A program made the position numbers and the translations under genes. 42,059 nt of DNA from Escherichia phage HHU8. Of this stretch, positions 7-38,072 are shown in pieces (positions within the stretch are counted from its first letter, which is position 1; each line of letters opens with the position of its first letter). The stretch lies in sequence record PQ641135; one strand, given 5' to 3'. The notes beneath the pieces were generated by a model. The model saw only the letters and a list, made by a program, of their open reading frames with translations, was not told the origin of the DNA and did no database searches.

Positions 7-2337
7 TTATCCAAGGTACTGCACAGAGTGTAGGCGTGCCCCGTCGGATACGTAGCAGTTCTCAATTGGTGTTGTACCAGCAGGTATAGTCACTGAAGCG
101 GTACCAACCTGCACAGCTATGGATTTATTCTGGTTGAACGTTATAGTGCAGTCGTACTGACCAGCAGTAACACCCGGAGCAATGTTGTACACAGTGCCAC
201 GGTAGTTAACGTCTAACGCGCCACCCAGCGATGCCAGTGTAATTGTAAGCGCAGTAGAATGGTTAATATCTACCAGCGTCAGAAGCGTACCTGCTGAAGA
301 TGCGTTCAACACGCAGCGCAGCACTGCACCAGCACACAACAGTGGGCGGTTACGTACCTGATTTGCTGCTGTCATACCGGGCTGTACAATCTCACGCGGA
401 ATCAAGCCAACACCAGAGTAGCCGAAGTCTGTACCAGCACCACCCATATCTGAAGTAGCCAGAATAGAGATTACCTGAAGACCAGCGTACAGCTGACACA
501 CCGTTGGTATGTACTGCGCGTCATAGTCAATAGGTATGGCTGTGCCTTGGTCTAAGCCGCCACTGAGCTGGGTACTCAGCAGGTTGCCGCTCAGCCCGAC
601 ACAGCACACAGAACCTGTACCCCACTGTGGCCCGTAGACCGCCAGCACCGTATCGTCGGTCGGGTTGTCCAGAATAACCGCGTGGTTCACACCAGTAGCA
701 GATGCCTGACGGCGGCCAGTAAGACCACCCCCGAAGCGTGAGCCACTTACGTAGTAGCTGCGGTTCAGCGAGATGTTGTCGAAGTACGTCGAGTTGGCCA
801 ACCCTGCCTTATCCCACGGCTTGTACAGCACATGCGCACACACAAGCGGGATAGCCAAGTTGCGGCCCATCTGAGCATACATCAGCGTTGATGGGTGCGC
901 ACCGTCCGGCACCTGCGTGTTAGGCGAGATGTAGCGTGCAGTCTTCTCTGCGTAGTAGTAGTTATCCACTAGGTCGCAGTTCATGGCGTGAGCCACCTCG
1001 CGCATAACCTGCACGTAGTCGCGCAGACGCTTGGACTTGGCTTCGTCAATGATTTGGTACGTAGTGATGCATGGGTTAAGGTTTGGCGTCACAAGGATTG
1101 GCACCTTACCGTACTTGCGCACTGTCTCGACGAACGTTACCACGTTGAGGCGGTACTGCTCAATGCTGTTAGCCAGCTGGCTATCGTTAATGCAGTGGTT
1201 GCAGTAAACGATATTAGCAGACGAGCTGGCCATCTTAGCTTCGAATGTAGAGCCTGAGCCATCGGTACCAGCCAACATCTGAGCCATAGTAGTACCTGAG
1301 ATGCCCTTGTTGTTGACGGTGTTAGCCATACCATAAAGGTTGGTCAACGTCAGACTGAGCACAGCTGGCTGGTTGTTTGGGTCTTGCACGCCAACGTTGA
1401 TTGTAGTGGCACCCCACATAGTGGAGTCACCGTGGCAGTCGATTACCACAGGAGTACCAGCAGCCAGTTGACGGGCGTAATAGGACGCTTTGCGGTACGT
1501 CGGATACTTGAGCTTAGCTACGTCAGCTGACACTGCGCTAACTGAGTCTGCGCTAGCAGCGCCGCCAACCAGCGTATAGCCAGTAGGAGCAGCCAATTCT
1601 TCACGCAGCGACACGTCATGCAGGGGTACCCATGCGCCAGCACTGATACCGCCTGTGGTAGCTGGAGAGCTGCCCAGCGGAACCGTCTTAGGCAATGCCC
1701 CGGCCCACTTGTACTGCTGCCCATTAGCCCGATACAGCACTGTGCGGTTAGCTACAGTGATAGTCGTGCCCGCCTCGAAAGTGCCAATCAGCACACACCC
1801 GGCTTCACGGGCGTCGCGGTAATGCAGCTCGTCCACACTGAGGTTGGTCTTAGCCAGCTCTGCCGCTACACCAGCAGCAGAATCAGTGTCTGGCAGCAGC
1901 ACCTGTGGGTTACCTTCGCTGTCGAAGCCCAGATACTTGCCAGCACGCTCAGCCACGCTAGGGATTAGCGCAATCTCTGGGTCGGAGTCCGGCACGCGAA
2001 GGGTGCGGCCACGGGCATAGTCCGTCAGGTCTGAGTATTCTTGGAAGGCATACAGCAGCTGGTCGAAGTCAGCATCCAAGTTCTGTCCGGTAAACGCAGC
2101 GCCCTGTCCAAACCTGTAGCGCAGCAGGACTGATGTCAAGCGGCGAAGCATGATGGAAGTGCCCGCGTCTGGCGCACCAACGAACGTCACAGTTTTGGCT
2201 ACTATGTCAATCGTGTAGCCAGTGGTCACAATCACGTTATTGAGGCGTACCTCGACCGAGCTGGAGTCCAGCTGGTCGAAGGTATACGTGTATGTGGTTG
2301 TGCTACCATCTGCAATATACAGGTTGTAGCTTGTCAT
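7..2337 (-). CDS. tail fiber / tailspike protein: T7 gp17-like N-terminal adaptor plus central SGNH (GDSL-type) hydrolase domain
   Basis: 776-aa ORF; ATG at 2335-2337 preceded by AGGAG; stop TAA at 7-9. The N-terminal ~150 aa resemble podovirus tail-fiber adaptor regions. Residues ~295-500 carry all four SGNH blocks: GDS (HGDSTMWG), G (NKGISGTT), xND (HCINDS), DxxH (DGAHPS). Last gene of the structural module. Confidence 0.8.
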   Translation of the reverse strand: MTSYNLYIADGSTTTYTYTFDQLDSSSVEVRLNNVIVTTGYTIDIVAKTVTFVGAPDAGTSIMLRRLTSVLLRYRFGQGAAFTGQNLDADFDQLLYAFQEYSDLTDYARGRTLRVPDSDPEIALIPSVAERAGKYLGFDSEGNPQVLLPDTDSAAGVAAELAKTNLSVDELHYRDAREAGCVLIGTFEAGTTITVANRTVLYRANGQQYKWAGALPKTVPLGSSPATTGGISAGAWVPLHDVSLREELAAPTGYTLVGGAASADSVSAVSADVAKLKYPTYRKASYYARQLAAGTPVVIDCHGDSTMWGATTINVGVQDPNNQPAVLSLTLTNLYGMANTVNNKGISGTTMAQMLAGTDGSGSTFEAKMASSSANIVYCNHCINDSQLANSIEQYRLNVVTFVETVRKYGKVPILVTPNLNPCITTYQIIDEAKSKRLRDYVQVMREVAHAMNCDLVDNYYYAEKTARYISPNTQVPDGAHPSTLMYAQMGRNLAIPLVCAHVLYKPWDKAGLANSTYFDNISLNRSYYVSGSRFGGGLTGRRQASATGVNHAVILDNPTDDTVLAVYGPQWGTGSVCCVGLSGNLLSTQLSGGLDQGTAIPIDYDAQYIPTVCQLYAGLQVISILATSDMGGAGTDFGYSGVGLIPREIVQPGMTAANQVRNRPLLCAGAVLRCVLNASSAGTLLTLVDINHSTALTITLASLGGALDVNYRGTVYNIAPGVTAGQYDCTITFNQNKSIAVQVGTASVTIPAGTTPIENCYVSDGARLHSVQYLG

Positions 2338-2342
2338 ATAAG

Positions 2343-5300
2343 TTAATCTCCTTTAACTGCTTCGGTAAGGGCGCGTACGCCGGGGACTATCGACAGCAGT
2401 GGTAGAGCCATTAGTGTGTTGCCAGTAGCCTGACGCGCATTGTTAAGAATACCCCCAGCGTCGCCTTGTAAAGCAGAACGGCCAACACCAGCGACGTTGC
2501 CAGCTACACCATACACACGGTCAATGAACAGCAGGCCCGGCGCACCAAAGCTGCGCTGCTGTCCAGTCAGGACACCAGTGAACTCAGAGGCGAAGCCGAT
2601 GGCACCGAGATAGTTCAGCGCTTGGCCAGCCAGCGCACCAATAGGTCGCTTATCATCAAAGCCTTTGCCAGAGATAACATTGTTCGCAGCTGTAGCCATC
2701 ATCGCCAGCGGATACTGGTAAGCCATAAGCGTAGCCATACCACGGGCACCCTCACGGTTCCAAGTACCAACCAGCGTCTTGTTGTGCGTAGCCGCGACGA
2801 ATCGACGGAACGTAAACAGGAACTTACCGAGGGTACTGAACTCAGCAAATGCAGGCAGCTCACCTACGCGAGCGCGAACAATAGCGTCATCCATGGCGTT
2901 AATCATGACGATGCGGGAGCGATTGAACACCCCTTCATCCCAAGCGTCAGGCTTGGTGCCATGGGTACCAACCTGCTTGCGAATGTCAGCCAGCAGTGCG
3001 TCATTGGCACCGTAGGTTTTCATGGCTGCAATAGCCTTGGCATCACCTTCGGCTGCCTTACGCAGCGTCTGCATCACGAGCGCAGCATTGGTTCGAGTCT
3101 GGTGGAAGTGGATGTACTTCTGCATGTTGATGAACATCGTAGCATCACGCAGGTGTTCCATACGCATGACCCACGGAGACTTATCCGCAGAGAACATGTC
3201 GTCATAGTGCTGCATGATTGGGCGCATACGAATATCACTCGCTACAGCCGCAGTCAGCGCTTCCTCGGCATCCAGAGCCAATTGACGACCTTCCTTAGTA
3301 GACACCCTCATTTGCTTAAATAGTGCGCGTGCTTCGGGAATTGTACGCATCATGGCGCGAAATGTATTGACTGCCCCGAAACGTTGCATCATCGTGCCGT
3401 ATTCCACCAACTGCCACAGGCCAGATGCAGCCAGACCAGTAGCCTGAGTCAGCGCAGAGAGCTGGCGCATGAACTCCGGCATTTCCTCACCAACAGGAGC
3501 ACCTTGGTAGTAAGCCATGATGTTGTCGTATTGGTCGAGAGCCTTGCGACGTGCCGTGCTATCCGGGATGGATTTGGCCAGAGCCTCACGAGCGGCGGCG
3601 CGTTCAGCGTCAGTACCCAGCCCAGCCTCGTGCAGAGCCAGTCGCCCGGTAATGCGGCGGTTGTAGCTGTCCATCATGCTGGTGATACTGTCATCGAACA
3701 GGTCGCGCACCTGCAAGTTCGGGCCAAGCGTGTGCATCATGTCGATGTTGATACGGCTCTTGAGCATCGACGGTCGGCCAGCGTCCGAGCCAGACTCACG
3801 AAGGAGTGCGGAAGCACGGGCTTTGGCAGCCTCGTCGAGACCTTTCGAGTTCTCAATGATTTCGAGCAATTCATCACGACCTTCCTTGTTGATAATCATG
3901 CCGGAGTTGTCGATACCATAACCCTTACGACGAGCACGCTCAACCATGGCATGGGCGATTACGTTGGCAGTCGGGCGGTCAGTACCGATACCACGCTGCA
4001 CCGCAGTCGTCATCTGCTTCATGAATGGCTTCTTGCCGAGCAACTGCTCAGCCTGCTCAATCTTGGTCACGTTCATCCGGCGCGGGTAGTAGTACGGGTT
4101 CTTGTCTACAAAGCCCGGTTCCACCATGCCCTTCGCTTCCAGCTCACGGCCCACGGCGCGGGAGTATTCCCCCAGTCGGTCGGCGGCAGCGGCCACGTTA
4201 GCGTTCGCGCCACGGAACTCCTTGTCAATCATACGCTTGTCCAGCTCGAGACGAACAGCAGCTTCGAACTCCTGCTGCGCCCGGCGATATCCCACCGGGT
4301 CACGGAAGCGACGTAAGTTGCTCCAGCCATCAGAGTTCAGTGCGTTACGCAGAGTGTCCTCGTACTGGTTCAACAGCACACCAAAGCGAGCCTGAGTCTC
4401 GCGCTGGATTGCAGCAGCAGAGGTCATGTTAGGGTTCAGTGGGTCGTCCAGCAATCGCCCGGCGAGAGCGCTGGCTTCATCAGAATGTTGGCTGAATGAT
4501 TTGAACAGCGACCATTCTAGGAACGGACGTTTCGGGTTGGTCTGCTCCCCACGGCGAGCAAGGTCGAGACCGCGCTGGGCAGTGGCCCGGATGGATTCAG
4601 GCACTTCATCGACCACAGCAGCACCTCGCGGCCCGGCACCGAGTGACATGGCCAATGGCGAGGTCATGTTGTTCGGGTCAAACTGCGGCGGGTTGTTCGG
4701 GTCAATACCGTTGCGACGCTGCATCTCCGCTGCAAATTCCTCCGGCGACAGGTCGGCCAGCGAGCGCTGTACCGGGGCCGGGCGATAGAATGCAGTGGTG
4801 GCCGCCCCGTGCAGGGCAGCCGCGAAGATGATTTCGTTCTGAGACACAGGGCGTGCTTCGTTACCCACCGCTGTCATAGTGGCAGCAGTTGAAGCTGCAC
4901 CGACAGCGGCGGTTCCGAGGCGACCTAATTTCAGGGCAGTGCCTGCTCCCATCGAGAGCAGGTCGGTGGCGAGGTACAGCGGGTCAGCGAATTGCAGAAC
5001 CGCGTTCATCACCGGGGCAGTGTGAGCCAACTGAGTACGCTCGCGCATCTCTTGGAGCTGCTGCGTACGCCAGTTGAACTCATCCATAGATTTGGATTTA
5101 AACAGGAAAGTTCTATCGTCTTCACCAATCGGGAACTGAACCTGCTGCAACGCCTCGTTGGGCTTGAAGTCAGGGTCAGCCTGAAAGGTAGGCTTGTTGA
5201 AGGCGGCATCAAAGAGCTGAGTGGTGTCCCAGTTCTTCACAGAAGCGCTCAACGCCGTGGCAATTGGAGTGGCTTCCAGTTCCTGCATCTTTTCGAACTG

Positions 5301-5441
5301 CTCGACGGCACCCTGACGAGTGGCATCCTGCAGTGGAGTGCTGAGCGTCTCAGCTTTTACGGGAGCTGGAATCACCAGCGTAGGGGCGTTGGCCCCCTGC
5401 TTGGAAGCCATGAACTTGTCGAGCGATTCTTGTGTAATCAT
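2343..5441 (-). CDS. internal virion (ejectosome) protein, T7 gp16-like
   Basis: 1032-aa ORF directly upstream of the tail fiber; ATG at 5439-5441 overlaps the stop of the preceding gene (ATGA). Position and size fit the largest internal core protein; the C-terminal segment resembles the gp16 C-terminus by eye. Confidence 0.65.
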   Translation of the reverse strand: MITQESLDKFMASKQGANAPTLVIPAPVKAETLSTPLQDATRQGAVEQFEKMQELEATPIATALSASVKNWDTTQLFDAAFNKPTFQADPDFKPNEALQQVQFPIGEDDRTFLFKSKSMDEFNWRTQQLQEMRERTQLAHTAPVMNAVLQFADPLYLATDLLSMGAGTALKLGRLGTAAVGAASTAATMTAVGNEARPVSQNEIIFAAALHGAATTAFYRPAPVQRSLADLSPEEFAAEMQRRNGIDPNNPPQFDPNNMTSPLAMSLGAGPRGAAVVDEVPESIRATAQRGLDLARRGEQTNPKRPFLEWSLFKSFSQHSDEASALAGRLLDDPLNPNMTSAAAIQRETQARFGVLLNQYEDTLRNALNSDGWSNLRRFRDPVGYRRAQQEFEAAVRLELDKRMIDKEFRGANANVAAAADRLGEYSRAVGRELEAKGMVEPGFVDKNPYYYPRRMNVTKIEQAEQLLGKKPFMKQMTTAVQRGIGTDRPTANVIAHAMVERARRKGYGIDNSGMIINKEGRDELLEIIENSKGLDEAAKARASALLRESGSDAGRPSMLKSRINIDMMHTLGPNLQVRDLFDDSITSMMDSYNRRITGRLALHEAGLGTDAERAAAREALAKSIPDSTARRKALDQYDNIMAYYQGAPVGEEMPEFMRQLSALTQATGLAASGLWQLVEYGTMMQRFGAVNTFRAMMRTIPEARALFKQMRVSTKEGRQLALDAEEALTAAVASDIRMRPIMQHYDDMFSADKSPWVMRMEHLRDATMFINMQKYIHFHQTRTNAALVMQTLRKAAEGDAKAIAAMKTYGANDALLADIRKQVGTHGTKPDAWDEGVFNRSRIVMINAMDDAIVRARVGELPAFAEFSTLGKFLFTFRRFVAATHNKTLVGTWNREGARGMATLMAYQYPLAMMATAANNVISGKGFDDKRPIGALAGQALNYLGAIGFASEFTGVLTGQQRSFGAPGLLFIDRVYGVAGNVAGVGRSALQGDAGGILNNARQATGNTLMALPLLSIVPGVRALTEAVKGD

Positions 5442-8134
5442 TCCTGCATACCTGCGAGTAGAGTTTGGACGTAATACTGCTTACGCTCGTCCTGCGACAG
5501 CTTGTAAGCCGGGGTCGCAGCCAGAGCCTGAACAGCTTTCTCTCGGTCTCCAACACGGATTGCATCAGCCAGTTTGCTGTACGCACCCTCGGTACGATAC
5601 CAGCTTGAACCTGCCTGATAACCCATCTGCATCATGAACTGGAACTGGGCATCGTTATCACGACTCCACCCCAGTGCAGCAGCAGTGCCGGGCATCTGCC
5701 GGGCTACCATGTTGGTGTGTGCTACGAACGTATCGTGGATAGTTCGCGGAGACCATTCAGTACCGCCTTTCATACCGGAAGCCTGACCCTCAGCAAAGTA
5801 CGGGCTGCGGTCGGAGATACCGACCCCGTTCGTCTGCACGCCAGTGCTGTCACGGTAAGTGGTGCTGCGGATACCTTCGAAGTCAATCAGTTTGCCACGG
5901 GCAACAAGCATACGCTGCTCGTTTACCCCAGCAGTATTCACGCCGTTCACGCGGATACCCACGTTACTGGTCTTATCAACAAAGAGTTTCCCGTCGCCGT
6001 AGACTTCGTTATTGGCAGTGGCCGCTGCACGGTCGTCTTCACGGATGCGTTCTTGTACGACCTGCGGCAGAATGCGTACCGAGTTCGGAGAAACGTCACC
6101 TTGCTTGTTGAAGAACTGAACGTTCAGGGAGCCATCTGGCATAAAGGAGTAGGACGACTCGAAGCCTTCTGGTGCCTTGGTCTGGTCAAGTGCGGCGATA
6201 GCGCGACCGATACGGTCGGGGGCTACGTCAGCAGGCAAGCCGAGCATAGACTGAACAGTTTGGCCTCTCGGTGCGATAAGCACAGAGCCGGGGCTGAATG
6301 TGGTTTCCCCAACGCGGAGGACACGGTTGGCCAGCTTCGCAGAGGCCAGAGCTTCCATACCATCCTTCGTGATATTAGGGTTCTTGAGGACAACAGCTTG
6401 CAGTTCCTCGCGGTACGCGGCAGCCACCTCCGACATTTCCTGCGCGGCAGTAATGTCACCAGATGCGACGCGAGCTTGGAACAGGTTCTGCTGAGTGTCT
6501 GAGAACAGACCAGCCAGCCCCTGCCAAGTGCGAGATAAGAAGCCCTGAGCCTCAAGGGAGTTCACCACGTTGTTAACGTCAGATTGACGCTGCGTGAGAA
6601 TTTGAGATTTCTGTGCCGGGGTTAAGCCAGCATAGTCCTGCTGCTGCTTGATGTAACCCTGACCAGCTTGGTCGATGGTGCGCCCGGCCTTAATCTGCTC
6701 GCGCATGTACACCATCTTCTCTTGGTTTTCCTCGGACAGACCGGACAGGAGTTTAGTCCACGCGGTCTTGTCACCCTGATTCTCGGCCACGGTTACGCGG
6801 TCAATCAGCCCGGTCACGGTAGCGGCTGCGTCAGGGTTCATTTCATCCACGGTGCCGAAGTTCGACAGGGATGGTTCAATCAGTTTCGCGGCAGACTTGT
6901 ACGCGGAAGGGAAACCAGTCTGTGCGCCAACTTGCAGCAGGTCGAATGCCACGGAGCTTGCCGTCGCGCCCGGTTGCTTCATGCGAGCCTTGATGAATGC
7001 GTCAGCACCATCCTGCTCGCTCGCGCCCTGCTGGAGCATGTACGTCTGGTTCCCGGTAGCGTAAGCCTGACCGAGCTGACTGGCCTTGGCTTGCTTGGCG
7101 TAATCCTTGTAGAAGGACTCGATAGCCGAGCTGAAACCACTGGCGCTAATCAGTTTGTTGTCCACCATCTGCTGGAGCGTCTGAGTGTACTGCTCCGGCG
7201 TAACGTCACCGAACACTGCTTGCCGTGCGTCGAGCTGACCTTTCTGTGCCAGCAGACCCATGTTGTCCTGAACCTCGGTACGAGATTTGGATTCACGAAT
7301 CTGACCTTGCAGCTTGGCCAAGTCTTCCGCAGGCAGCTCGTTGAACAGCCCGGAGTTCACAGCAGTCTCGACCGGAGTACGCAAATCCTGCTGGAGCATC
7401 AGCCCCATCATGGACGTTACCTGAGTCCGGCGAGTTTCCAGTGGTAGCTTCTCGTCTGCCAGAATGGACTTGGCCCATGCCATGGTCGCAGCCGTAGCGT
7501 TAGCGTACGCGCCGCCGTCACCAGTTGCTTTGGCCTGAGCCGCCAGAGTAACGAGAGTGTTACCCTGCGAGTTGTACATCGCCGCACGCTGCTCAACCAG
7601 ATACTTACCATGCTGGGCAGCCTGCGTACGGATAAGGGTATTGCTGAACGTGAGCTGGTTTTCCAGCAGAGCCTTACGGCCATTCAGCGTCATGCCATCA
7701 GTGTTCTCGAACAGGCCAGTGGTCTTCTCGTCCACCACCTTCAAGAACTCGTCAGGACTCATTTTCGCGTACTGCGGCATGTTAGCCGAGATTTCAGAGG
7801 CGACGTTCGCCATCTGCATACGCTTGTACTGGTCGTTATAACCAGCCTTTTGGAACTGGGCGGTTAGCCAGTTTGAATCCAAATCCTCAACGGCCTTCCC
7901 GCTCGCGGCGGCGTTGGCACCTTTGAGGTATTCTTCCTCGTTCGCACGTTCAGTGACACGACCAGCCAACTGGCTGGCCATGTTCAGTACGCGCTGAATA
8001 GACTCGGTAGGAAACGTGTCGATGCGAGTATCGCGGCCTGCGAGACTAAACGGAGTCTGCGCCTGCTGCACACTTGGTAATCCCTGCTGCGCAGCATTAA
8101 TGTTAGCGCCACGCTGGTCACGCAAAGTAGCCAT
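5438..8134 (-). CDS. internal virion protein, T7 gp15-like
   Basis: 898-aa ORF between the gp14-like and gp16-like genes; ATG at 8132-8134. Call based on synteny and size. Confidence 0.6.
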   Translation of the reverse strand: MATLRDQRGANINAAQQGLPSVQQAQTPFSLAGRDTRIDTFPTESIQRVLNMASQLAGRVTERANEEEYLKGANAAASGKAVEDLDSNWLTAQFQKAGYNDQYKRMQMANVASEISANMPQYAKMSPDEFLKVVDEKTTGLFENTDGMTLNGRKALLENQLTFSNTLIRTQAAQHGKYLVEQRAAMYNSQGNTLVTLAAQAKATGDGGAYANATAATMAWAKSILADEKLPLETRRTQVTSMMGLMLQQDLRTPVETAVNSGLFNELPAEDLAKLQGQIRESKSRTEVQDNMGLLAQKGQLDARQAVFGDVTPEQYTQTLQQMVDNKLISASGFSSAIESFYKDYAKQAKASQLGQAYATGNQTYMLQQGASEQDGADAFIKARMKQPGATASSVAFDLLQVGAQTGFPSAYKSAAKLIEPSLSNFGTVDEMNPDAAATVTGLIDRVTVAENQGDKTAWTKLLSGLSEENQEKMVYMREQIKAGRTIDQAGQGYIKQQQDYAGLTPAQKSQILTQRQSDVNNVVNSLEAQGFLSRTWQGLAGLFSDTQQNLFQARVASGDITAAQEMSEVAAAYREELQAVVLKNPNITKDGMEALASAKLANRVLRVGETTFSPGSVLIAPRGQTVQSMLGLPADVAPDRIGRAIAALDQTKAPEGFESSYSFMPDGSLNVQFFNKQGDVSPNSVRILPQVVQERIREDDRAAATANNEVYGDGKLFVDKTSNVGIRVNGVNTAGVNEQRMLVARGKLIDFEGIRSTTYRDSTGVQTNGVGISDRSPYFAEGQASGMKGGTEWSPRTIHDTFVAHTNMVARQMPGTAAALGWSRDNDAQFQFMMQMGYQAGSSWYRTEGAYSKLADAIRVGDREKAVQALAATPAYKLSQDERKQYYVQTLLAGMQE

Positions 8135-8136
8135 GA

Positions 8137-8877
8137 TTAGCCCCCAAAGATTGAACCTGAGCCGTAGCCCATGTAACGATTTGAATCATATTGCGCCGGA
8201 ACCGGGTTAAATTCCCCAGCCTTTTGCATCCAGTTAGTTGTTCCATAACTCGCTGTCGTAGAGCCGAGGTTACTGAACGTTGACGCTGTAGCGCCTGCAC
8301 TGCCACTCTGCGTGCCAGTACCTTTCGCACCTTCGGTCGGCATGTAGTCGAAGCTGGTCTGCGCGAGGCTTGAAGCGAACTGCATAGCGGATACGCCAAT
8401 GGCGCGACCCACAATCATGCTGTTGCTCGCTGGTTTCTGCGAATAACGCTGAGCTGCGACTGCTGTGTCGATGATATCGTTGATGCTGGTGTCTAGGTTC
8501 ATCTCCTGAATCTGCTCGTTGAACCGGGTCTGCGCTTGGCTTTCCTGATTCTGTCGGTTGATATCCGTAACCGCCTCATCGACCGACGCACCTTCAATCC
8601 CAGCGGCGGCGGCGTTGTTAATGCTCGCCCCGGCTGCGCGGTTCGCTTCCTTGTTGATGTTGTACAGGTCGGTGCCAGTCTGCTGCCGGAGCAGCCCACG
8701 CTGAAGGTTAACGGTATTGATACGCTGGCCCATTGCTTGCCACGTCTGCTTATTCAGCCGCTCATTCTCGGCTTGCACAGCTTTCATCTGCGCACGCTCA
8801 GCGCGTCCTTGCGCATACGTGGTAATGAAAGAGTTCGTGGCGTCAGCACCAGCTTTGGCGAAGGCAGCCCAACCCAT
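8137..8877 (-). CDS. internal virion protein, T7 gp14-like
   Basis: 246-aa Gly/Ala/Ser/Gln-rich ORF immediately after tail tubular protein B; ATG at 8875-8877. Call based on synteny. Confidence 0.5.
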   Translation of the reverse strand: MGWAAFAKAGADATNSFITTYAQGRAERAQMKAVQAENERLNKQTWQAMGQRINTVNLQRGLLRQQTGTDLYNINKEANRAAGASINNAAAAGIEGASVDEAVTDINRQNQESQAQTRFNEQIQEMNLDTSINDIIDTAVAAQRYSQKPASNSMIVGRAIGVSAMQFASSLAQTSFDYMPTEGAKGTGTQSGSAGATASTFSNLGSTTASYGTTNWMQKAGEFNPVPAQYDSNRYMGYGSGSIFGG

Positions 8878-14181: not shown

Positions 14182-15747
14182 TTAAATCTGTGCGATGTTA
14201 GGCGCTACATCAACTGCGCCCGGCTGTACGCCAGCGGCGGCAGCGGCTGCATTGTCGATGGCCTGACCTTCTTGGGCCAAGTCTTGTGGCGACTTACGGT
14301 AGTCGTCCAGCGCAACACCATTGGAGGCAAAGATAACCTCAAGGACTTTCTGAGGGTCGATGGTGTTAGCAACGCCATTAATATTCTGGACAGCAACCAT
14401 TGCTGCCTGCGAGTCGGATAGCGCTCTGATAAGCGTCTCAGCTTCAATGCTTCGACCGAGGGCATCCAAGCCTGCTTCGACTTGAAGCGACAGGATGTTG
14501 CCGACGATATCTGGTACGGTGGACTCGTCAATCTCCGCGAGCAGGACATACGCCAGAGGAATTTGGAGGGTCTTAGCCTGCATTGAGTACGGCCCACCCA
14601 GCCCACGCTCGGCGCTGGTTGCTACCTGCTGCACTTCGGTGGCGGTGGTACGTTCGGAGTCACGGAACTCGCCAGTGTACATGAAGGCTTGCGCCAGTCG
14701 CTGCACAATCTGGTTGATTTCGTCACGGGCCTGTTGAACTTTCTGGTAATCCCCGACCTCCAGCCCCGACAACGTGGTGCCGTTCTGGAGTGGAATGACC
14801 TGACCAGTCTCTGCGCTCTCAATGTCATCGACGTTGCCGCCAGAACCAGTGAGCATCCACAGCACGCGCAACGCTTCCTGCATGTACAGAGCAGAATGCT
14901 CAGACAGGAGCGACAGACGTGCGAAATCCCCAGCGTGGTCTTCGACAATCCCGCGACCGTAATGCTCGCCAGACTTCAAAGACCACACTGGGAATAACCA
15001 TGGGCAGACTTTTTCAGGGTAGTAATCTTTACCGGGGGTATAGACGCAGCCTTGGTAGTTGCCAATCTGCTGCGTTACTTCGTAGCCGTAGTTGCCACTG
15101 TCCTTCTGAACGCGAAGGACACGGGTGTACAGCCACACGCGTTTGTTCCCACCGCAGCGGAAGCCTTTGGAGTTCAGCTCATTCTGAAAATCCTTCGGCA
15201 GAGAATCCCACTGGATGCGCTCCTTGATGACGGCATCCACCACAACGCCACGACCGTCGCGCTGCACCACGAAGGATTCCAATCCGTACACTCGGTACGA
15301 ACCAGTCTCCATATCGCGGTACAGCGCGGCGTTTCCGGTCACAGCTTGCTGGGCAATGCACTGGAGCAGGTCAGCGTAGCCGCCATTCTCTTTGGCTTTG
15401 TCTACGATGGCCTTCTCAATAGTGATAAGCGCCTGATTAACTTGTGACATAGACTGCCGCTGTTGGTCAGACACCTTGTTTAATTTCAGCTTCACGAATC
15501 GTGCGGAAGCCGGGAACAGGAACTCACCTAACCTAGCGGTCAGGTTGTTGACGAGCAGAGCGCCGACAGACTGGTAATCACGAGTAATCTGCTGGCGGTT
15601 CATGTCGTCCACATCACTGCGGTCATACTCGCTCACCAGCTTAGCCAGTGTGTAGCGGCTGTATTCCCGCGCTTTCGTGACAACGTTGCTATCCCGGTAC
15701 TTCTGCCACAGAGACTCATAGCTGACGTTCTGCGCGTCTTGAGTCAT
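14182..15747 (-). CDS. portal (head-tail connector) protein, T7 gp8-like
   Basis: 521-aa ORF at the head of the structural module; ATG at 15745-15747. Size and position match the podovirus portal. Confidence 0.75.
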   Translation of the reverse strand: MTQDAQNVSYESLWQKYRDSNVVTKAREYSRYTLAKLVSEYDRSDVDDMNRQQITRDYQSVGALLVNNLTARLGEFLFPASARFVKLKLNKVSDQQRQSMSQVNQALITIEKAIVDKAKENGGYADLLQCIAQQAVTGNAALYRDMETGSYRVYGLESFVVQRDGRGVVVDAVIKERIQWDSLPKDFQNELNSKGFRCGGNKRVWLYTRVLRVQKDSGNYGYEVTQQIGNYQGCVYTPGKDYYPEKVCPWLFPVWSLKSGEHYGRGIVEDHAGDFARLSLLSEHSALYMQEALRVLWMLTGSGGNVDDIESAETGQVIPLQNGTTLSGLEVGDYQKVQQARDEINQIVQRLAQAFMYTGEFRDSERTTATEVQQVATSAERGLGGPYSMQAKTLQIPLAYVLLAEIDESTVPDIVGNILSLQVEAGLDALGRSIEAETLIRALSDSQAAMVAVQNINGVANTIDPQKVLEVIFASNGVALDDYRKSPQDLAQEGQAIDNAAAAAAGVQPGAVDVAPNIAQI

Positions 15748-15749
15748 GC

Positions 15750-16010
15750 TTAGCTCCCAATGCCGAGGTTACTTGCCACACCAGTTCCGGTACGGCGGCG
15801 GCGACCACCCAGTGTGTCAGAGGCCGAGCTTACTTGGCCACCTGCCTGAATGGTTGGGGTGTTCTCACCAGCGAGGTCGGCTGCAAGGTTAGCTTGCATG
15901 GTTTCTGCCTTGACCTGCGCCGGGTCAGTCTTGATAGTGTACTGCGGCTTTTGGCTACCCAGTCCGAAGACGGAGCCAATGCCCTTGAATACTTTGCCTA
16001 CGCTACCCAT
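15750..16010 (-). CDS. small Gly-rich protein, possible virion protein
   Basis: 86-aa ORF; ATG at 16008-16010 preceded by GGAGAA; Gly-rich N-terminus (GSVGKVFKGIGSVFGLGS); immediately upstream of the portal gene. Confidence 0.4.
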   Translation of the reverse strand: MGSVGKVFKGIGSVFGLGSQKPQYTIKTDPAQVKAETMQANLAADLAGENTPTIQAGGQVSSASDTLGGRRRRTGTGVASNLGIGS

Positions 16011-16429
16011 TACGGTTTCTCCAAATCAATGAAGCGGTACTCCTGAACGTAAGGCCGCACCATATGGGAGTAACCGCACCAACGCACACCCGCTGAACGG
16101 GCCACGTCTTTGAGTACACGGAGGATGGCACGCATCACTCCACGGTTTCTGTACTGGGGCCAGACGTATGAGGCCATAACGACCACCATCTCACCCACAT
16201 GAATATCGAATAACCTGCCGATGTGAGCAACAGCCATGAGGCTGCCGTCATCGTCAGTGATGTAAACGTCAACGCAGCCGGAGGCGGTGGCCTCGTACAT
16301 GCTGTCAACAATCACATCGGGAGATAGGTCTGACCATGGCCGCTCAGCTTGAATGCCCTCGGCCACAGCACGGCGAATGTCGAGTGGCATCGTCGTGTGT
16401 GATGTATTTCCCATAGTAGACACTTTCAT
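16010..16429 (-). CDS. putative GNAT-family N-acetyltransferase
   Basis: 139-aa ORF; contains an R-x-x-G-x-G/A acetyl-CoA-binding-like motif (RNRGVMRAIL) followed by an amphipathic helix, as in GNAT motif A. Its ATG (16427-16429) lies inside a copy of the 21-bp ATGAAAGTGTCTA motif. Confidence 0.4.
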   Translation of the reverse strand: MKVSTMGNTSHTTMPLDIRRAVAEGIQAERPWSDLSPDVIVDSMYEATASGCVDVYITDDDGSLMAVAHIGRLFDIHVGEMVVVMASYVWPQYRNRGVMRAILRVLKDVARSAGVRWCGYSHMVRPYVQEYRFIDLEKP

Positions 16430-16430
16430 T

Positions 16431-16616
16431 TCAAATCACTCTTTCTCTGATGAAATCCAGAACGTCTTGCTTACCAGCCTCTCTGTTAATCAGAGGTAGG
16501 TTAGTGTCGGGAGTGACTGTCTTACCTACCTGAGACCATGTACCGAAGTGCTTCTCCAGTAGAGCTATCTGTGCTTTAGTGAACTGAACTCTTTCAAGCG
16601 TAGATTCTTTACCCAT
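16431..16616 (-). CDS. hypothetical protein
   Basis: 61 aa from the ATG at 16614-16616, which is preceded by GAGAGGA; the longer track ORF would begin at a TTG. Confidence 0.4.
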   Translation of the reverse strand: MGKESTLERVQFTKAQIALLEKHFGTWSQVGKTVTPDTNLPLINREAGKQDVLDFIRERVI

Positions 16617-16677
16617 ACAATCCTCTCTTAGTGGCAGCAACCCCCGCCACTGACGGGGCTACCGGTAGCGTGATATC

Positions 16678-16698
16678 TATCACTATAGACACTTTCAT
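16678..16698 (+). promoter_or_regulatory. second copy of the 21-bp promoter-like element (plus strand TATCACTATAGACACTTTCAT) with an adjacent 14-bp palindrome, between the RNA polymerase gene and the late genes
   Basis: Plus strand 16670-16683 GTGATATCTATCAC is a palindrome; 16678-16698 is identical to the minus-strand sequence at 37488-37508. Lies in the 110-nt gap after the RNA polymerase stop. Orientation of function is ambiguous. Confidence 0.4.
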
Positions 16699-16726
16699 TT
16701 AAGTCAATGATACATATCACTATTTA

Positions 16727-19159
16727 TCAGCAGAAAAACTTGCTTGATTGTTTCACAAGTTGGATATCCAGATTGCCACGCTCAGGTGCAACAGCATTGT
16801 ATCGTACAGCAAGTTGTTGAATCGGGTCATGTTGCTCATACATCTGCACGAACTTTTCACGAATGACCTTGTGGAGTAACCCGGCATGAGCTGCTGCCAC
16901 CCCGAACGAATCGTGGATAGACACCATGTACACCCCGTTATTCCACATCTCCCACAACACCTTCATCATGTGGCTGGCATCCATAGCGTGTACGAAATTC
17001 GGAGCAATCGCAGCGGCACACTTCCTGCCATCAGGCTTGTCCAGATACTCGCGCAGCTTAATGCTGTGGATACCCATGAGGTTGATGTTATTGAGCATCG
17101 TCTCCTTGCTGGCTTGATACAGGTTCACCACTCGCAGCCCTGACGGTGCAATGATTTCCACGTACTCACCGTTGGCTGCCGCCTCTACCGCGATAGCCTG
17201 CAACCATGCCATCAGCTCTGCCGCCTTCGGCACAACGCGAGGGATTGCATTCCACATGAACTCTGCGATGAACTGCGCACACTCCAGTAGGCTCTTGCCG
17301 TCCGGCAGCTTGACCCGGTTCTCACGCAGGTACAGGCAGTAGTAGTCCACCATCCCGTGTCGGGTTGCCCCGTACACGTATGTCATCACTGGCTTCTTAG
17401 CCATCGCCCGGACAATGCCGATTGAAACAAGCCACGAACCCATCTGCGTCGGTGACTGCGCTTCACTATCTTCAAGAGCCTGCATCGCCGCTGCTGCCGT
17501 CTTGAGATATATGTCTGCTTTTCTTCCCACGCTATTGATAAGATTGACAGCAGCACCTCCAACTTCATCTCGTAGCATCGCACTGAGGTGCTGGAGTCCT
17601 GAACAGGTAGCATCCCATTGCGTGACCACTCGGCAGGGATAAGTCTCAGGATTTCCTGAGTCGATAGCGCGAATGAGTTCAACAGAGGCAGCCCACGCGC
17701 TGATAGGGCTATCGGCCTCTGACCAGAACGAATCAAATGCCTCTGGAAGACGGCACGCCTCACGTAGTCGGGGGAGTGTCTTGTCCGTCCACGCCGCCCG
17801 GTCGTCGAAGTCTGTTGCGTCGTAGCCGAAGCAATTCGCAACATGAACCTTGAGCCAGAACAGCCCCTCAGTTCCGAGAGCCACTGGTTCCGCAAGCTCA
17901 AGCAGCGCTCGCACCGCGTCGATAGACTGAGGATTAAGGGTCGAAGAATAATAAATTCGGCCCCGCGTATCGGCGTAAGTCGGGAGATAAATCCTATCGT
18001 ACTGCGCATACCTGTCTGCCTCTTTGACTGCACCATTCAGCGCCAGCATCTGTGACGTGAACTTACGCAACTCATTGTAATACAAGCGAGTCTTCACCTT
18101 GTACTCATGAGCTTCGGCATCCATCTGCTGCTGCATCTCTGGTGGGAACTTGCTGATGTACTGTGCAAAGCTCACACCAGCCGGGATGGTAAACGGAAGT
18201 GTAGGTTCACGAGGCGGCACAGGCAGCCCCATAACGCCTGTACGGTTCGTTCGCAGGAACTCCAGTACCATTGGGTTAACTCGGTACGGAACGCTGCTGA
18301 GCATCATACACGGCTCTATAACGGGGGTAGGGTCAACGTTCAATGCACGATACCCTTTATGGTTCATGCGGCTCATTACCCGGTACATCGCTGCCTGCCC
18401 ATCTGAATGCCACATACCGCTGCGACCGTTAGGTGCAATCTGCTTCGGCGGGATAATCAGTGGTGGGCAGCACATGCCATCAGCACGCGGCATGTCCAAC
18501 CAGTCATTCATCGTAGCCAGCACATCCTCGTGCAATGCAAAGTGTGCCGTACCGCGCTGGCGCTGGTTGCCTCCGACACGAATCGTGGACACCAGACCAG
18601 TTGGCTCAACGCACTTCATCATAAGCTTGCCAATGGTAATCAGCGCACGCTGCGGCAGCACATCAATCTCCACCCCAACGTTCGCCGCCGACGCACGCGC
18701 TTTGTTGTAGACGTGGTTCGCTGACTTCGAGCGAGACTTCTTCACGTCCTGCTTAACGCGCTCCATGTACGCCGCCTGCTGCGGCCCGGTCTGCTTCGCC
18801 CGGAGGTACACCACCTCAGCCATCAGTGCCTTGCCCATGCTCTTGAGCAGACTCAGTACCGCCTGCTCCGACGCAGCACCGGACACCGCCATGCTCAGTG
18901 CAAGAGAGGCACACGCTTTGGTGCCAATCTCACGCATGTACGTCCGGTACTGCGCACCATACCCACGGGTCGTTTCGCTCAGGGTTTCTTGCATCGCAGC
19001 TTCGACCAGAGGATAAGCCTCAACCATCATACGCTGGAGCAACGGCACCGACCCGGCGCGGCCACTGGCCATCGCCTCTTTGATATTATCCAGCCAGCCC
19101 TCGCGGTGTCTGGCTCGCGCTTCTTCTTCAAGTCGAATCTGCTCTGCAAGTAAATCCAC
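16727..19159 (-). CDS. single-subunit DNA-dependent RNA polymerase (T7 RNAP family)
   Basis: 810-aa ORF with hallmark motifs: DATCSGLQH (motif A), VMTYVYGAT (motif B region), HDSFG (motif C). Start is GTG at 19157-19159, 5 nt after a perfect AAGGAG. Confidence 0.9.
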   Translation of the reverse strand: MDLLAEQIRLEEEARARHREGWLDNIKEAMASGRAGSVPLLQRMMVEAYPLVEAAMQETLSETTRGYGAQYRTYMREIGTKACASLALSMAVSGAASEQAVLSLLKSMGKALMAEVVYLRAKQTGPQQAAYMERVKQDVKKSRSKSANHVYNKARASAANVGVEIDVLPQRALITIGKLMMKCVEPTGLVSTIRVGGNQRQRGTAHFALHEDVLATMNDWLDMPRADGMCCPPLIIPPKQIAPNGRSGMWHSDGQAAMYRVMSRMNHKGYRALNVDPTPVIEPCMMLSSVPYRVNPMVLEFLRTNRTGVMGLPVPPREPTLPFTIPAGVSFAQYISKFPPEMQQQMDAEAHEYKVKTRLYYNELRKFTSQMLALNGAVKEADRYAQYDRIYLPTYADTRGRIYYSSTLNPQSIDAVRALLELAEPVALGTEGLFWLKVHVANCFGYDATDFDDRAAWTDKTLPRLREACRLPEAFDSFWSEADSPISAWAASVELIRAIDSGNPETYPCRVVTQWDATCSGLQHLSAMLRDEVGGAAVNLINSVGRKADIYLKTAAAAMQALEDSEAQSPTQMGSWLVSIGIVRAMAKKPVMTYVYGATRHGMVDYYCLYLRENRVKLPDGKSLLECAQFIAEFMWNAIPRVVPKAAELMAWLQAIAVEAAANGEYVEIIAPSGLRVVNLYQASKETMLNNINLMGIHSIKLREYLDKPDGRKCAAAIAPNFVHAMDASHMMKVLWEMWNNGVYMVSIHDSFGVAAAHAGLLHKVIREKFVQMYEQHDPIQQLAVRYNAVAPERGNLDIQLVKQSSKFFC

Positions 19160-30821: not shown

Positions 30822-30893
30822 AGTTCACCTCACGTTGGCCAATATAGACACCTTCATAATGCCTGCTAAATAATAACAGGCATGAGTAGATGA

Positions 30894-33867: not shown

Positions 33868-33889
33868 GATAAAACCCTCAGTTAGTTGC

Positions 33890-37487: not shown

Positions 37488-37508
37488 ATGAAAGTGTCTA
37501 TAGTGATA
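37488..37508 (-). promoter_or_regulatory. promoter-like element with T7-class core (minus strand reads TATCACTATAGACACTTTCAT), upstream of the sigma70 promoters
   Basis: Minus strand carries ...GATACTATATCACTATAG|ACAC...; the core TCACTATAG matches the conserved -8..+1 of T7/SP6/K11-group promoters. It sits just upstream of the tandem early promoters, comparable to the T7 left-end phage promoter. Perfect 21-bp inverted copy of 16678-16698. Confidence 0.4.
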
Positions 37509-37519
37509 TAGTATCGCTA

Positions 37520-37960
37520 GATACGCAGAGCGAGCGCGGCGCAGCCGAAACAAGCGAGCGCGGAACGTCAACGGATGGAATCCGACAGGATGACAGGCGG
37601 CAGACAGTGAACGCAGTAGGACAGTAGACAGAGTGTAACAGCAGGTAGCAGAGCATGACGCGCAGAGCTGGAGGCGCAGACAGTAGACCAGCAGACAGGA
37701 CAGCACCACGCAGCACCACGCCGCGCCACGAAAAGAGACAGATACCCGCCCGACCACAGGCAGCACGCAGCACCGCGCAGCCAGCGCAGAGCGTCCCCAT
37801 AGGACAGCACCGCACAGCACAGCCAGCAGGACAGCACCGCGCCGAGTGATGAAACGCGACACGCACGAGCTATACCGCACGCAGGCAATCCTCTTGACGC
37901 GCCGCGCAGCGCACGCGAGCAATTATCGCGCACGTCGCGAGGCTAAACCGCGCACACGCT
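37520..37960. repeat. thymine-depleted, short-repeat-rich non-coding tract (candidate terminal-repeat / concatemer-junction region)
   Basis: About 440 bp in which the plus strand is nearly devoid of T and is built from degenerate short repeats (AGGACAGCACC at 37697, 37800 and 37828; GACAGTAGAC at 37625 and 37681; many ACGCAG/CAGCAC units). No credible ORF; lies between the last gene (endolysin) and the early promoters. Confidence 0.5.
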
Positions 37961-38072
37961 ATGGGGGCACGCGCGGTCATTTGGGTCGAGGGAGGGGCAC
38001 GTACAAATAGTCAATTTTCAAGCCGGGGTATTGCACCCACGGCCTGTTCATTGCATCAGCTTTTGGATACCC

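Follow-up and report, generated by a model that had tools for sequence, protein, structure and literature searches.

Escherichia phage HHU8 (sequence record PQ641135) was presented as one strand of 42,059 nucleotides (nt), and this whole stretch is called the window below. We analyzed a gene at 16010..16429 that encodes a 139-amino-acid (aa) protein. An earlier note, made from the sequence without database searches, had taken it for a putative GNAT acetyltransferase gene between the phage RNA polymerase (RNAP) gene and the portal gene. The open reading frame (ORF) was confirmed at this place and lies on the minus strand, which carries all long ORFs of the window. It lies between the RNAP and portal genes but does not directly adjoin them, because a 61-aa and an 86-aa ORF intervene on either side. 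The genes of the locus, in the order in which they are read, are as follows.

16727..19159, minus strand: single-subunit phage RNAP gene (PF00940, E 2.1e-83; phrog_414, 4.5e-213)
16431..16616, minus strand: 61-aa ORF preceding the GNAT-fold gene, homolog of LUZ19 gp27 (phrog_6575, 2.6e-5)
16010..16429, minus strand: GNAT-fold gene, ATG start, 139 aa, assigned as the LUZ19 gp28 (Rac) ortholog, distantly homologous to T7 gp7
15750..16010, minus strand: 86-aa small virion structural protein, following the GNAT-fold gene (phrog_35536, 4.9e-47; phrog_3112, 1.1e-10)
14182..15747, minus strand: portal (head-tail connector) gene (PF12236, 1.6e-50; phrog_449, 2.4e-138)

The relatives of the 1.1 kb around the gene assign the window to Bonnellvirus (phiKMV-like coliphages, Autographiviridae). 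Over this region, Escherichia phage megetsur and three Enterobacter/Escherichia phages share 98.5% identity with the window, and Lidtsur shares 76%. The ratio of nonsynonymous to synonymous substitution rates (dN/dS) was 0.09 against Lidtsur, 0.17 against J8-65, and 0.08 against the related locus L005; the DNA of these orthologs is 71-74% identical to that of the window gene. These values show the ORF to be a real gene under purifying selection. The ATG chosen here is identical to that in the megetsur annotation. The TGA stop of the 61-aa ORF lies 1 nt ahead of it (TGA-A-ATG), and from this spacing the translation of the two ORFs may be coupled. The same tight junction was found in Lidtsur and J8-65. 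LUZ19 gp27 matched phrog_6575, the family of the 61-aa ORF, with 1.2e-53. At the other end, the stop codon of the GNAT-fold gene and the start codon of the 86-aa ORF overlap (TAATG), and the latter is preceded by its own GGAG Shine-Dalgarno sequence. LUZ19 gp29 and LKA1 gp40 are the equivalents of the 86-aa protein, having PHROGs in common with it.

Fold and family of the 139-aa protein

The 139-aa protein matched PF00583 with an E value of 6.3e-5 and 23.7 bits, above the gathering cut-off of 20.7 bits, and Rac itself scored a nearby 23.0 bits. A PDB search with the single sequence gave nothing significant (best E 0.36), and a profile was needed. The profile of 16 orthologs matched mostly GNATs (spermidine/spermine N-acetyltransferase, SSAT, and thialysine acetyltransferases), with 8yv7 as the best match at 7.6e-4, and also a few weak ribosomal uL14 chains. 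The alignment with 8yv7 covers β3, β4, motif A, and α3.

The canonical GNAT fold has the order β1-α1-α2-β2-β3-β4-α3-β5-α4-β6-β7. Motif A, Q/R-x-x-G-x-G/A, lies in the β4-α3 loop and binds pyrophosphate, while motif B is the helix α4, which follows β5 and lines the cofactor cleft. An AlphaFold2 model built from 18 sequences had a mean predicted local distance difference test score (pLDDT) of 95.3 and a predicted TM-score of 0.88. Its elements are ordered as β1 (residues 2-8), α1 (16-29), α2 (37-47), β2 (52-58), β3 (64-75), β4 (79-89), α3 (98-113), β5 (117-125), and β6 (128-135). Thus two of the checks proposed in the earlier note, a profile search and a structure prediction, spoke for a GNAT: PF00583 was matched above its cut-off, and the model has the GNAT fold without α4. 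As Pfam, the family profiles, and the PDB profile search agree in the assignment, the GNAT fold predicted for the 139-aa protein can be regarded as secure. Two conserved elements were located in the model.

16130..16159, minus strand: predicted motif A or pyrophosphate-binding loop, P91-Q-Y-R94-N-R-G97-V-M-R100, in the β4-α3 loop, overlapping RNRGVMRAIL
16193..16207, minus strand: family signature D75-I-H77-V-G79, in the predicted β3-β4 turn

RNRGVMRAIL (residues 94-103, nt 16121-16150) had been proposed as an acetyl-CoA-binding-like motif. It overlaps the motif A loop, in which the final G/A of the motif is absent. The loop aligned with motif A of thialysine acetyltransferase and SSAT structures, and P91, Y93, and R94 did not vary among the 16 orthologs. 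Acetyl-CoA is probably bound through β4 and the P-Q-Y-R-N-R-G loop.

The canonical small GNATs, such as the thialysine/spermidine acetyltransferases 8yv7 and 2b3u and the dopamine N-acetyltransferase 3te4, are only 7-12% identical to the phage protein. Compared with them, the phage protein lacks α4 with motif B and the longer C-terminal substrate-binding elements, and has M as the last residue of motif A. One explanation would be that it acetylates a small molecule (polyamine, thialysine, aminoglycoside, or similar) as the product of an auxiliary metabolic or resistance gene. The nearest PDB sequences are indeed thialysine/diamine acetyltransferases, and NCBIfam models of AAC(6') gave sub-threshold matches. 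However, the PDB and NCBIfam matches span only the generic motif A region, a score of 16.7 bits compares with a family cut-off of 325, and the C-terminal half that forms small-molecule pockets is absent. The fixed place of the gene among the late/structural genes of Autographiviridae and the kinship with Rac favor a protein target, and we consider the small-molecule explanation very improbable. An equivalog assignment as aminoglycoside or amino-acid acetyltransferase was dropped as well, since the matches to NCBIfam AAC(6') and N-acetylglutamate synthase (NAGS) models were far below threshold.

An exhaustive profile search over 1.84 billion representatives with a cut-off of E<=1e-3 yielded only 86 clusters, mostly of proteins of 135-160 aa. 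Among 76 scanned members of the family, 75 matched phrog_3986, 57 matched phrog_2746, and 59 matched PF00583 (best 3.3e-16). Two signatures are common to the family: D-x-H-V-G in the β3-β4 turn and, 16 residues on, P-x-[YF]-R-x-x-G, which recurs in most of the distant representatives. D75-I-H77-V-G79 was unvaried in the orthologs and was found in 64 of 74 distant representatives. Across the 76 representatives, G79 was invariant, and D75, H77, and V78 were conserved in at least 90%. Rac has the version DPHVG, and T7 gp7 has DIHHKG, longer by one residue. The sequence RWCGYSH on β5 is also strongly conserved in the family.

A locus search with the ortholog alignment gave seven close loci. A distant member, P0023, on a metagenomic contig (SRR20950699_622, L017, 423-836), precedes a polynucleotide-kinase-like fragment and an exonuclease rather than a portal gene; synteny with the structural module is not universal in the family. 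A 3393-aa, repeat-rich, surface-type protein (P0024) gave 31 weak matches to profile positions 37-83 with a summed E of 2.4e-35, and was set aside as a probable artefact of summing over repeats.

A promoter-like repeat on the start codon

As the earlier note had claimed, the start codon lies inside a repeated motif: an exact copy of ATGAAAGTGTCTA begins with the ATG at 16427-16429. Copies of the pattern ATGAARGTGTCTA with <=1 mismatch were counted over the whole window and compared with 100 shuffles. Five copies were observed against 0.06 expected, and none of the 100 shuffles reached five. The copies are as follows.

16417..16429, minus strand: exact copy of the promoter-like core ATGAAAGTGTCTA, containing the GNAT start codon and encoding M-K-V-S
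16686..16698, minus strand: exact copy directly 3' of the RNAP gene, likely promoter for GNAT expression
30845..30857, minus strand: promoter-like copy ahead of the primase/replication block (counterparts LIMEzero 7298, J8-65 5664)
3299..3311, minus strand: promoter-like copy inside the gene for a 1032-aa internal virion protein (ORF 2343..5441), ~956 nt before the gene end
37488..37500, plus strand: promoter-like copy in the non-coding genome-end region (counterparts LIMEzero 640-652(-), J8-65 536-548(-))

Four of the five copies run with the genes. The context of the 16686 copy, AAATGAAAGTGTCTATAGTGATA, resembles T7/SP6-type promoters, and inspection of the sequence AAATGAAAGTGTCTATAGTGA likewise revealed a context resembling T7/SP6-class promoters (…CTATAG). 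LIMEzero, a phage of another genus, has its own 13-mer, AAGGCAAGCACTA, with five copies against 0.07 expected, all at equivalent places: 7298, 20334, 20744 (the ATG of ORF36), 33870-33882 (~965 nt before the end of ORF45), and 640-652(-). Two of the LIMEzero sites, the counterparts of the window copies at 30845 (7298) and 16686, were labelled 'putative phage specific promoter' by the authors of that genome. The repeat of J8-65 is different again, ATGAAAGTAACTG, with four copies against 0.02 expected, at 536-548(-), 5664, 19630, and 19870 (the GNAT ATG). The GNAT start of Lidtsur and of the loci L005, L008, and L010 lies in a sequence resembling the respective phage's own intergenic element after the RNAP gene. 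The GNAT ATG is overlapped by a phage-specific promoter-like sequence in LIMEzero, J8-65, Lidtsur, L005, L008, and L010, and the sequence is different in each.

Because of the conserved positions, the strand bias, the lineage-specific covariation, and the resemblance to known promoters, the repeat is likely the promoter core of the phage RNAP. Since a positionally conserved and covarying promoter core is identified in this way, the copy on the GNAT start codon is, on comparative grounds, to be seen as a conserved feature and no coincidence. No promoter-like copy was found at the start of Rac in LUZ19 or of its homolog in LKA1, which distinguishes them from the window. The start-codon overlap is thus specific to the Bonnellvirus/Waewaevirus lineages.

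The first five codons double as promoter bases and read MKVST in the window, MKAST in LIMEzero, and MKVSV in J8-65. These five residues belong to strand β1 of the model, whose mean pLDDT over residues 1-10 was 97. A leaderless mRNA read from the second ATG (Met6) was considered and dropped, as Met6 is replaced by L, V, or K in orthologs. The 30845-30857 copy opens a mini-ORF of 10 codons (MKVSILANVR and a stop), and the J8-65 copy at 5664-5676 supplies the start codon in the annotation of gp11 (MKVTVLHN...). The ATG of the promoter core appears from these sequences to serve as a start codon more than once.

Other roles are conceivable for the remaining copies. From within its gene, the copy at 3299 may serve as a promoter for the tail fiber or tailspike gene that lies downstream. 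The 37488 (+) copy and its counterparts in LIMEzero and J8-65 are on the strand opposite to all genes, a few hundred bp from the left genome end, and face the terminal repeat. In J8-65, the terminal repeat occupies 1-259 (259 bp), and the 536-548(-) copy lies 277 bp further inward. This arrangement suggests a function in replication priming or in concatemer processing/packaging rather than in gene expression. In the window, 37560-38000 is a GC-rich non-coding stretch with recurring short CTG/GCG-type repeats (…GGTGCTGTCCTG…), with the lysis genes on one side and the AT-rich early region on the other. It is presumably the terminal-repeat or genome-end region of a circularly permuted assembly.

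The earlier note had also expected co-expression of the GNAT gene with late genes, which is plausible because a promoter-like element lies directly 3' of the RNAP gene. Scans of 15600-16900 detected no sigma70 promoter or intrinsic terminator above chance, and a stem-loop between the promoter and the 61-aa ORF was not significant (z = -1.43). Once the phage RNAP has appeared, the promoter at 16686-16698 would drive an mRNA for the 61-aa protein. The GNAT protein would be translated from the same mRNA by termination-reinitiation at TGA-A-ATG, and the 86-aa virion protein (through TAATG) and the portal protein would be next on it. From the second promoter, which covers the GNAT ATG, RNA synthesis would begin a few bases 3' of this codon. 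Since these transcripts would begin downstream of the start codon, they would carry the virion-protein, portal, and capsid genes, but no translatable GNAT. The second promoter would thereby boost the structural genes, so that the GNAT level would stay below that of the structural proteins. We infer the transcription start sites and the promoter roles in this scheme from sequence.

Kinship with Rac and T7 gp7

The 139-aa protein matched phrog_3986 with 5.8e-37, and LUZ19 gp28 (Rac) matched the same family with 2e-66. BLASTP aligned the protein with Rac at 28% identity over 109 aa (E 2e-9), and hhalign of the ortholog profile with Rac gave a probability of 98.4% and an E value of 4.5e-15. ORF36 of LIMEzero, a Rac homolog according to Table A1 of the study of Rac (PMC7552054), is 54% identical to the window protein. 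The two proteins have the motifs DxHVG and PxYRNxGV in common. Their genes also occupy the same slot: each lies 3' of the RNAP gene, from which a gp27-like ORF separates it, and touches or overlaps the first small virion-protein gene, with the portal gene next. The LUZ19 genes are ordered gp26, gp27, gp28, gp29, and gp30, and the module of RNAP, gp27-like ORF, GNAT, small virion protein, and portal is kept in LUZ19, LKA1, LIMEzero, Lidtsur, J8-65, and a metagenomic contig. In contrast to Rac, which has 157 aa, the window protein has 139 aa and no C-terminal tail. On the strength of profiles and alignments, we identify the window protein as an ortholog of Rac and a member of a known, published family.

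Rac was described as a GNAT in 2020 (PMC7552054). When gp28 alone was expressed in P. aeruginosa, RpoA was cut at Gln244-Glu245 with loss of the C-terminal domain of the RNAP α subunit, and transcription went down by 76% (PMC7552054). Purified Rac is no protease; ClpX and HslU were enriched, and their knockouts still allowed the cleavage of α (PMC7552054). Expression of Rac raised cellular lysine acetylation, and Ala replacement of Q, Y, V, and R in the predicted acetyl-CoA pocket abolished the effect of Rac (PMC7552054). The corresponding residues of the window protein are found in S87-Y88-V89 ... M99-R100; of the four, it has Y, V, and R, with S87 in place of Q.

The second known relative is T7 gp7, which carries the RefSeq label 'host range and adsorption protein; gene 7, host range'. 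T7 gp7 matched phrog_2746 with 3.1e-51 and had no Pfam match. The window protein also matched phrog_2746, with E 3.6e-12 over residues 48-118, and hhalign of its ortholog profile with a profile of 11 T7 gp7 relatives gave a probability of 89.6% and E 1.9e-6 over 81 columns. The AlphaFold2 model of a 98%-identical T7 gp7 (pLDDT 90.6) has the same order of strands and helices as the window protein, and its structure matches were GNATs only; helix α4 is likewise absent from it. Past its own orthologs, the BFVD neighbors of the window model included 'host specificity protein A' and 'host range protein' of T7-like phages. T7 gp7 keeps the D-I-H-(H-K)-G turn, and its cofactor loop is P-E-A-D-S-K-G, without Y-R. 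Judged from profiles and models, T7 gp7 is a diverged member of the GNAT-fold family. Because the match of the window protein to phrog_2746 is weaker than that to phrog_3986, the sequences place it in a sister family of gp7, and it is no strict gp7 ortholog. The literature searched contained no paper that joins T7 gp7 to GNATs or Rac, which is an absence of evidence and does not prove novelty.

The kinship with gp7 raises the possibility of a role in virion maturation or 'host range'. In such a case, the GNAT-fold protein would act on a virion component, by acylation or as a chaperone, and the obvious candidate is the small ejected protein encoded next. Particles without it would be less infective on some hosts, and the effect of Rac on RNAP α would be a lineage-specific extra. 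The homology to T7 gp7, the common topology of the models with GNATs as only matches, and the BFVD neighbors described above are in line with this role. So is the gene order: GNAT, small virion protein, and portal follow each other in seven of the eight contexts (phage or contig) examined, with overlapping stop and start codons in most of them. T7 gp7, with 133 aa, is of similar size to the window protein, and its gene too is followed, after a gap of 3 nt, by that of a small virion protein, gene 7.3, upstream of the portal. On the other hand, gp7 is only ~13% identical to the window protein, the RNAP gene of T7 is an early gene at a distance, and gene 7.7 lies between 7.3 and the portal gene.

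T7 gp7.3 is a possible analog of the 86-aa protein. The two are linked by position, by weak PHROG bridges (8.9e-4; 0.031), and by a basic C-terminal tail like R-R-R...G-I/L-G-I-N, which was recognized by eye as common to the small proteins and gp7.3. However, hhalign of the 86-aa protein family with gp7.3 gave a probability of 0.2%, and homology is unsupported. Several further points speak against a virion role. The distant homolog P0023 sits among genes of DNA metabolism, the T7 gp7 branch may be non-catalytic as its loop has lost Y-R, and a T7 cryo-electron microscopy study mentions no modification of small virion proteins. The literature searched also gave no usable primary description of the T7 gene 7 phenotype. 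We regard a virion role as possible but unlikely, and it ranks behind a Rac-like protein acetyltransferase.

Another virion gene of the window, at 8137-8877 (-) after the gene for tail tubular protein B, encodes a 246-aa internal virion protein of the T7 gp14 family (PF24072, 7.3e-30), and no gp13 (IVP-A)-like gene lies between the two. T7 gp13 itself was reported to match acetyltransferases (Hardies et al., PMC4819975). T7 may thus carry two GNAT-like proteins tied to virion infectivity.

Function and wider meaning

By analogy with Rac, the window protein is most likely an acetyl-CoA-dependent protein acetyltransferase that aids host takeover, a reading we favor by a modest degree of confidence, and its catalytic competence is probable. 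The GNAT protein would be made once the phage RNAP is active and would acetylate one or a few protein targets. In Phikmvvirus, the outcome is host-protease-mediated loss of the C-terminal domain of RNAP α, and the target in this E. coli phage may differ. Candidate targets or modes are a host factor, with Rac-like inactivation of RNAP α, a virion component, or none, with the fold acting as a binding module. A likeness in concept exists to AcrVA5, a GNAT which is encoded by a prophage and acetylates Cas12a (cited in PMC7552054, section 4.3). Both would be small GNATs of mobile elements that modify a single host protein; their kinship is known at the superfamily level only, and their genomic contexts differ.

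A number of observations weigh against a Rac-like acetyltransferase. The PF00583 alignment of the window protein spans only positions 15-93 of the 116 of the hidden Markov model. In the predicted structure no helix α4 is present, and β5 (117-125) turns straight into β6 (128-135). Motif A reads R94-N-R-G97-V-M99, in which R and G are kept and the last G/A is replaced by M; this last position is T, A, S, or P in orthologs, and G97 is changed to N in 2 of the 16. If canonical GNATs are a guide, DxHVG, the most conserved motif of the family, would be remote from the thioester site; it might bind a partner, contribute to a dimer interface, or form a second active site. Even the study of Rac identified neither an acetylated peptide nor a direct substrate, and the LKA1 homolog did not cause α cleavage, so that the phenotype was called 'genus-specific' (PMC7552054). 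The growth of P. putida was unaffected by Rac. In addition, the RpoA linker of E. coli K-12 (...DLRDVRQPEVKEEKPEF...) has no EEQEDE and lacks the EEQ/EDE cleavage context of P. aeruginosa. Since the E. coli linker differs in this way, the mechanism of Rac is not simply transferable to this phage.

These observations raise the question of whether the protein is a catalytically inactive GNAT fold that works by binding, for instance by serving as adaptor or inhibitor for a host protein or by helping in assembly. The missing α4/motif B, the imperfect motif A with its variable G97, and the failure to find an acetylated substrate peptide of Rac (PMC7552054) fit such a protein. The strongest conservation (DxHVG, and RWCGYSH on β5) lies outside the canonical cofactor loop, and the T7 gp7 branch is without Y-R. 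However, P-x-Y-R-x-x-G is strongly conserved in most of the family, and the pocket mutant of Rac was inactive and Rac raised lysine acetylation (PMC7552054), with the restriction that the mutated Y and V are core β4 residues, so that misfolding is possible. An inactive fold is judged unlikely, slightly more so than the virion role. We rank a Rac-like protein acetyltransferase first, followed by virion modification and the inactive scaffold.

A broader and decidedly doubtful proposal would unite these elements. Rac and T7 gp7 would form one pan-Autographiviridae GNAT-fold family that ancestrally acylated a virion component, likeliest a small basic ejected protein like gp7.3 with the N-terminus MG..., and the attack of Rac on α would be derived. 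In enterobacterial phiKMV-like phages, the dose of the enzyme would be set by the promoter in its first five codons. If this were true, the virion-acylation ancestry would explain the decades-old 'host range' phenotype of T7 gene 7, and the promoter in the first five codons would be a dual-coding element that co-evolves with the specificity of the phage RNAP.

The GNAT call by itself adds little to what is known, as the Rac family is published and one ortholog, YP_009821635.1 of Lidtsur, is already labelled 'GNAT family N-acetyltransferase'; most close relatives, the nearest among them, are still 'hypothetical protein'. The analysis does provide a testable function for an unannotated gene in easily handled E. 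coli phages, which would make the Rac mechanism (the acetylated target and the protease) accessible to E. coli genetics. The covarying promoter copies would offer a ready set of promoters for these RNA polymerases, and the GNAT start would be a clear case of a promoter and a protein N-terminus on shared bases. Finally, T7 gene 7, a classic gene without a known mechanism, is tied to the same GNAT-fold family, which suggests work in the best-understood phage system.

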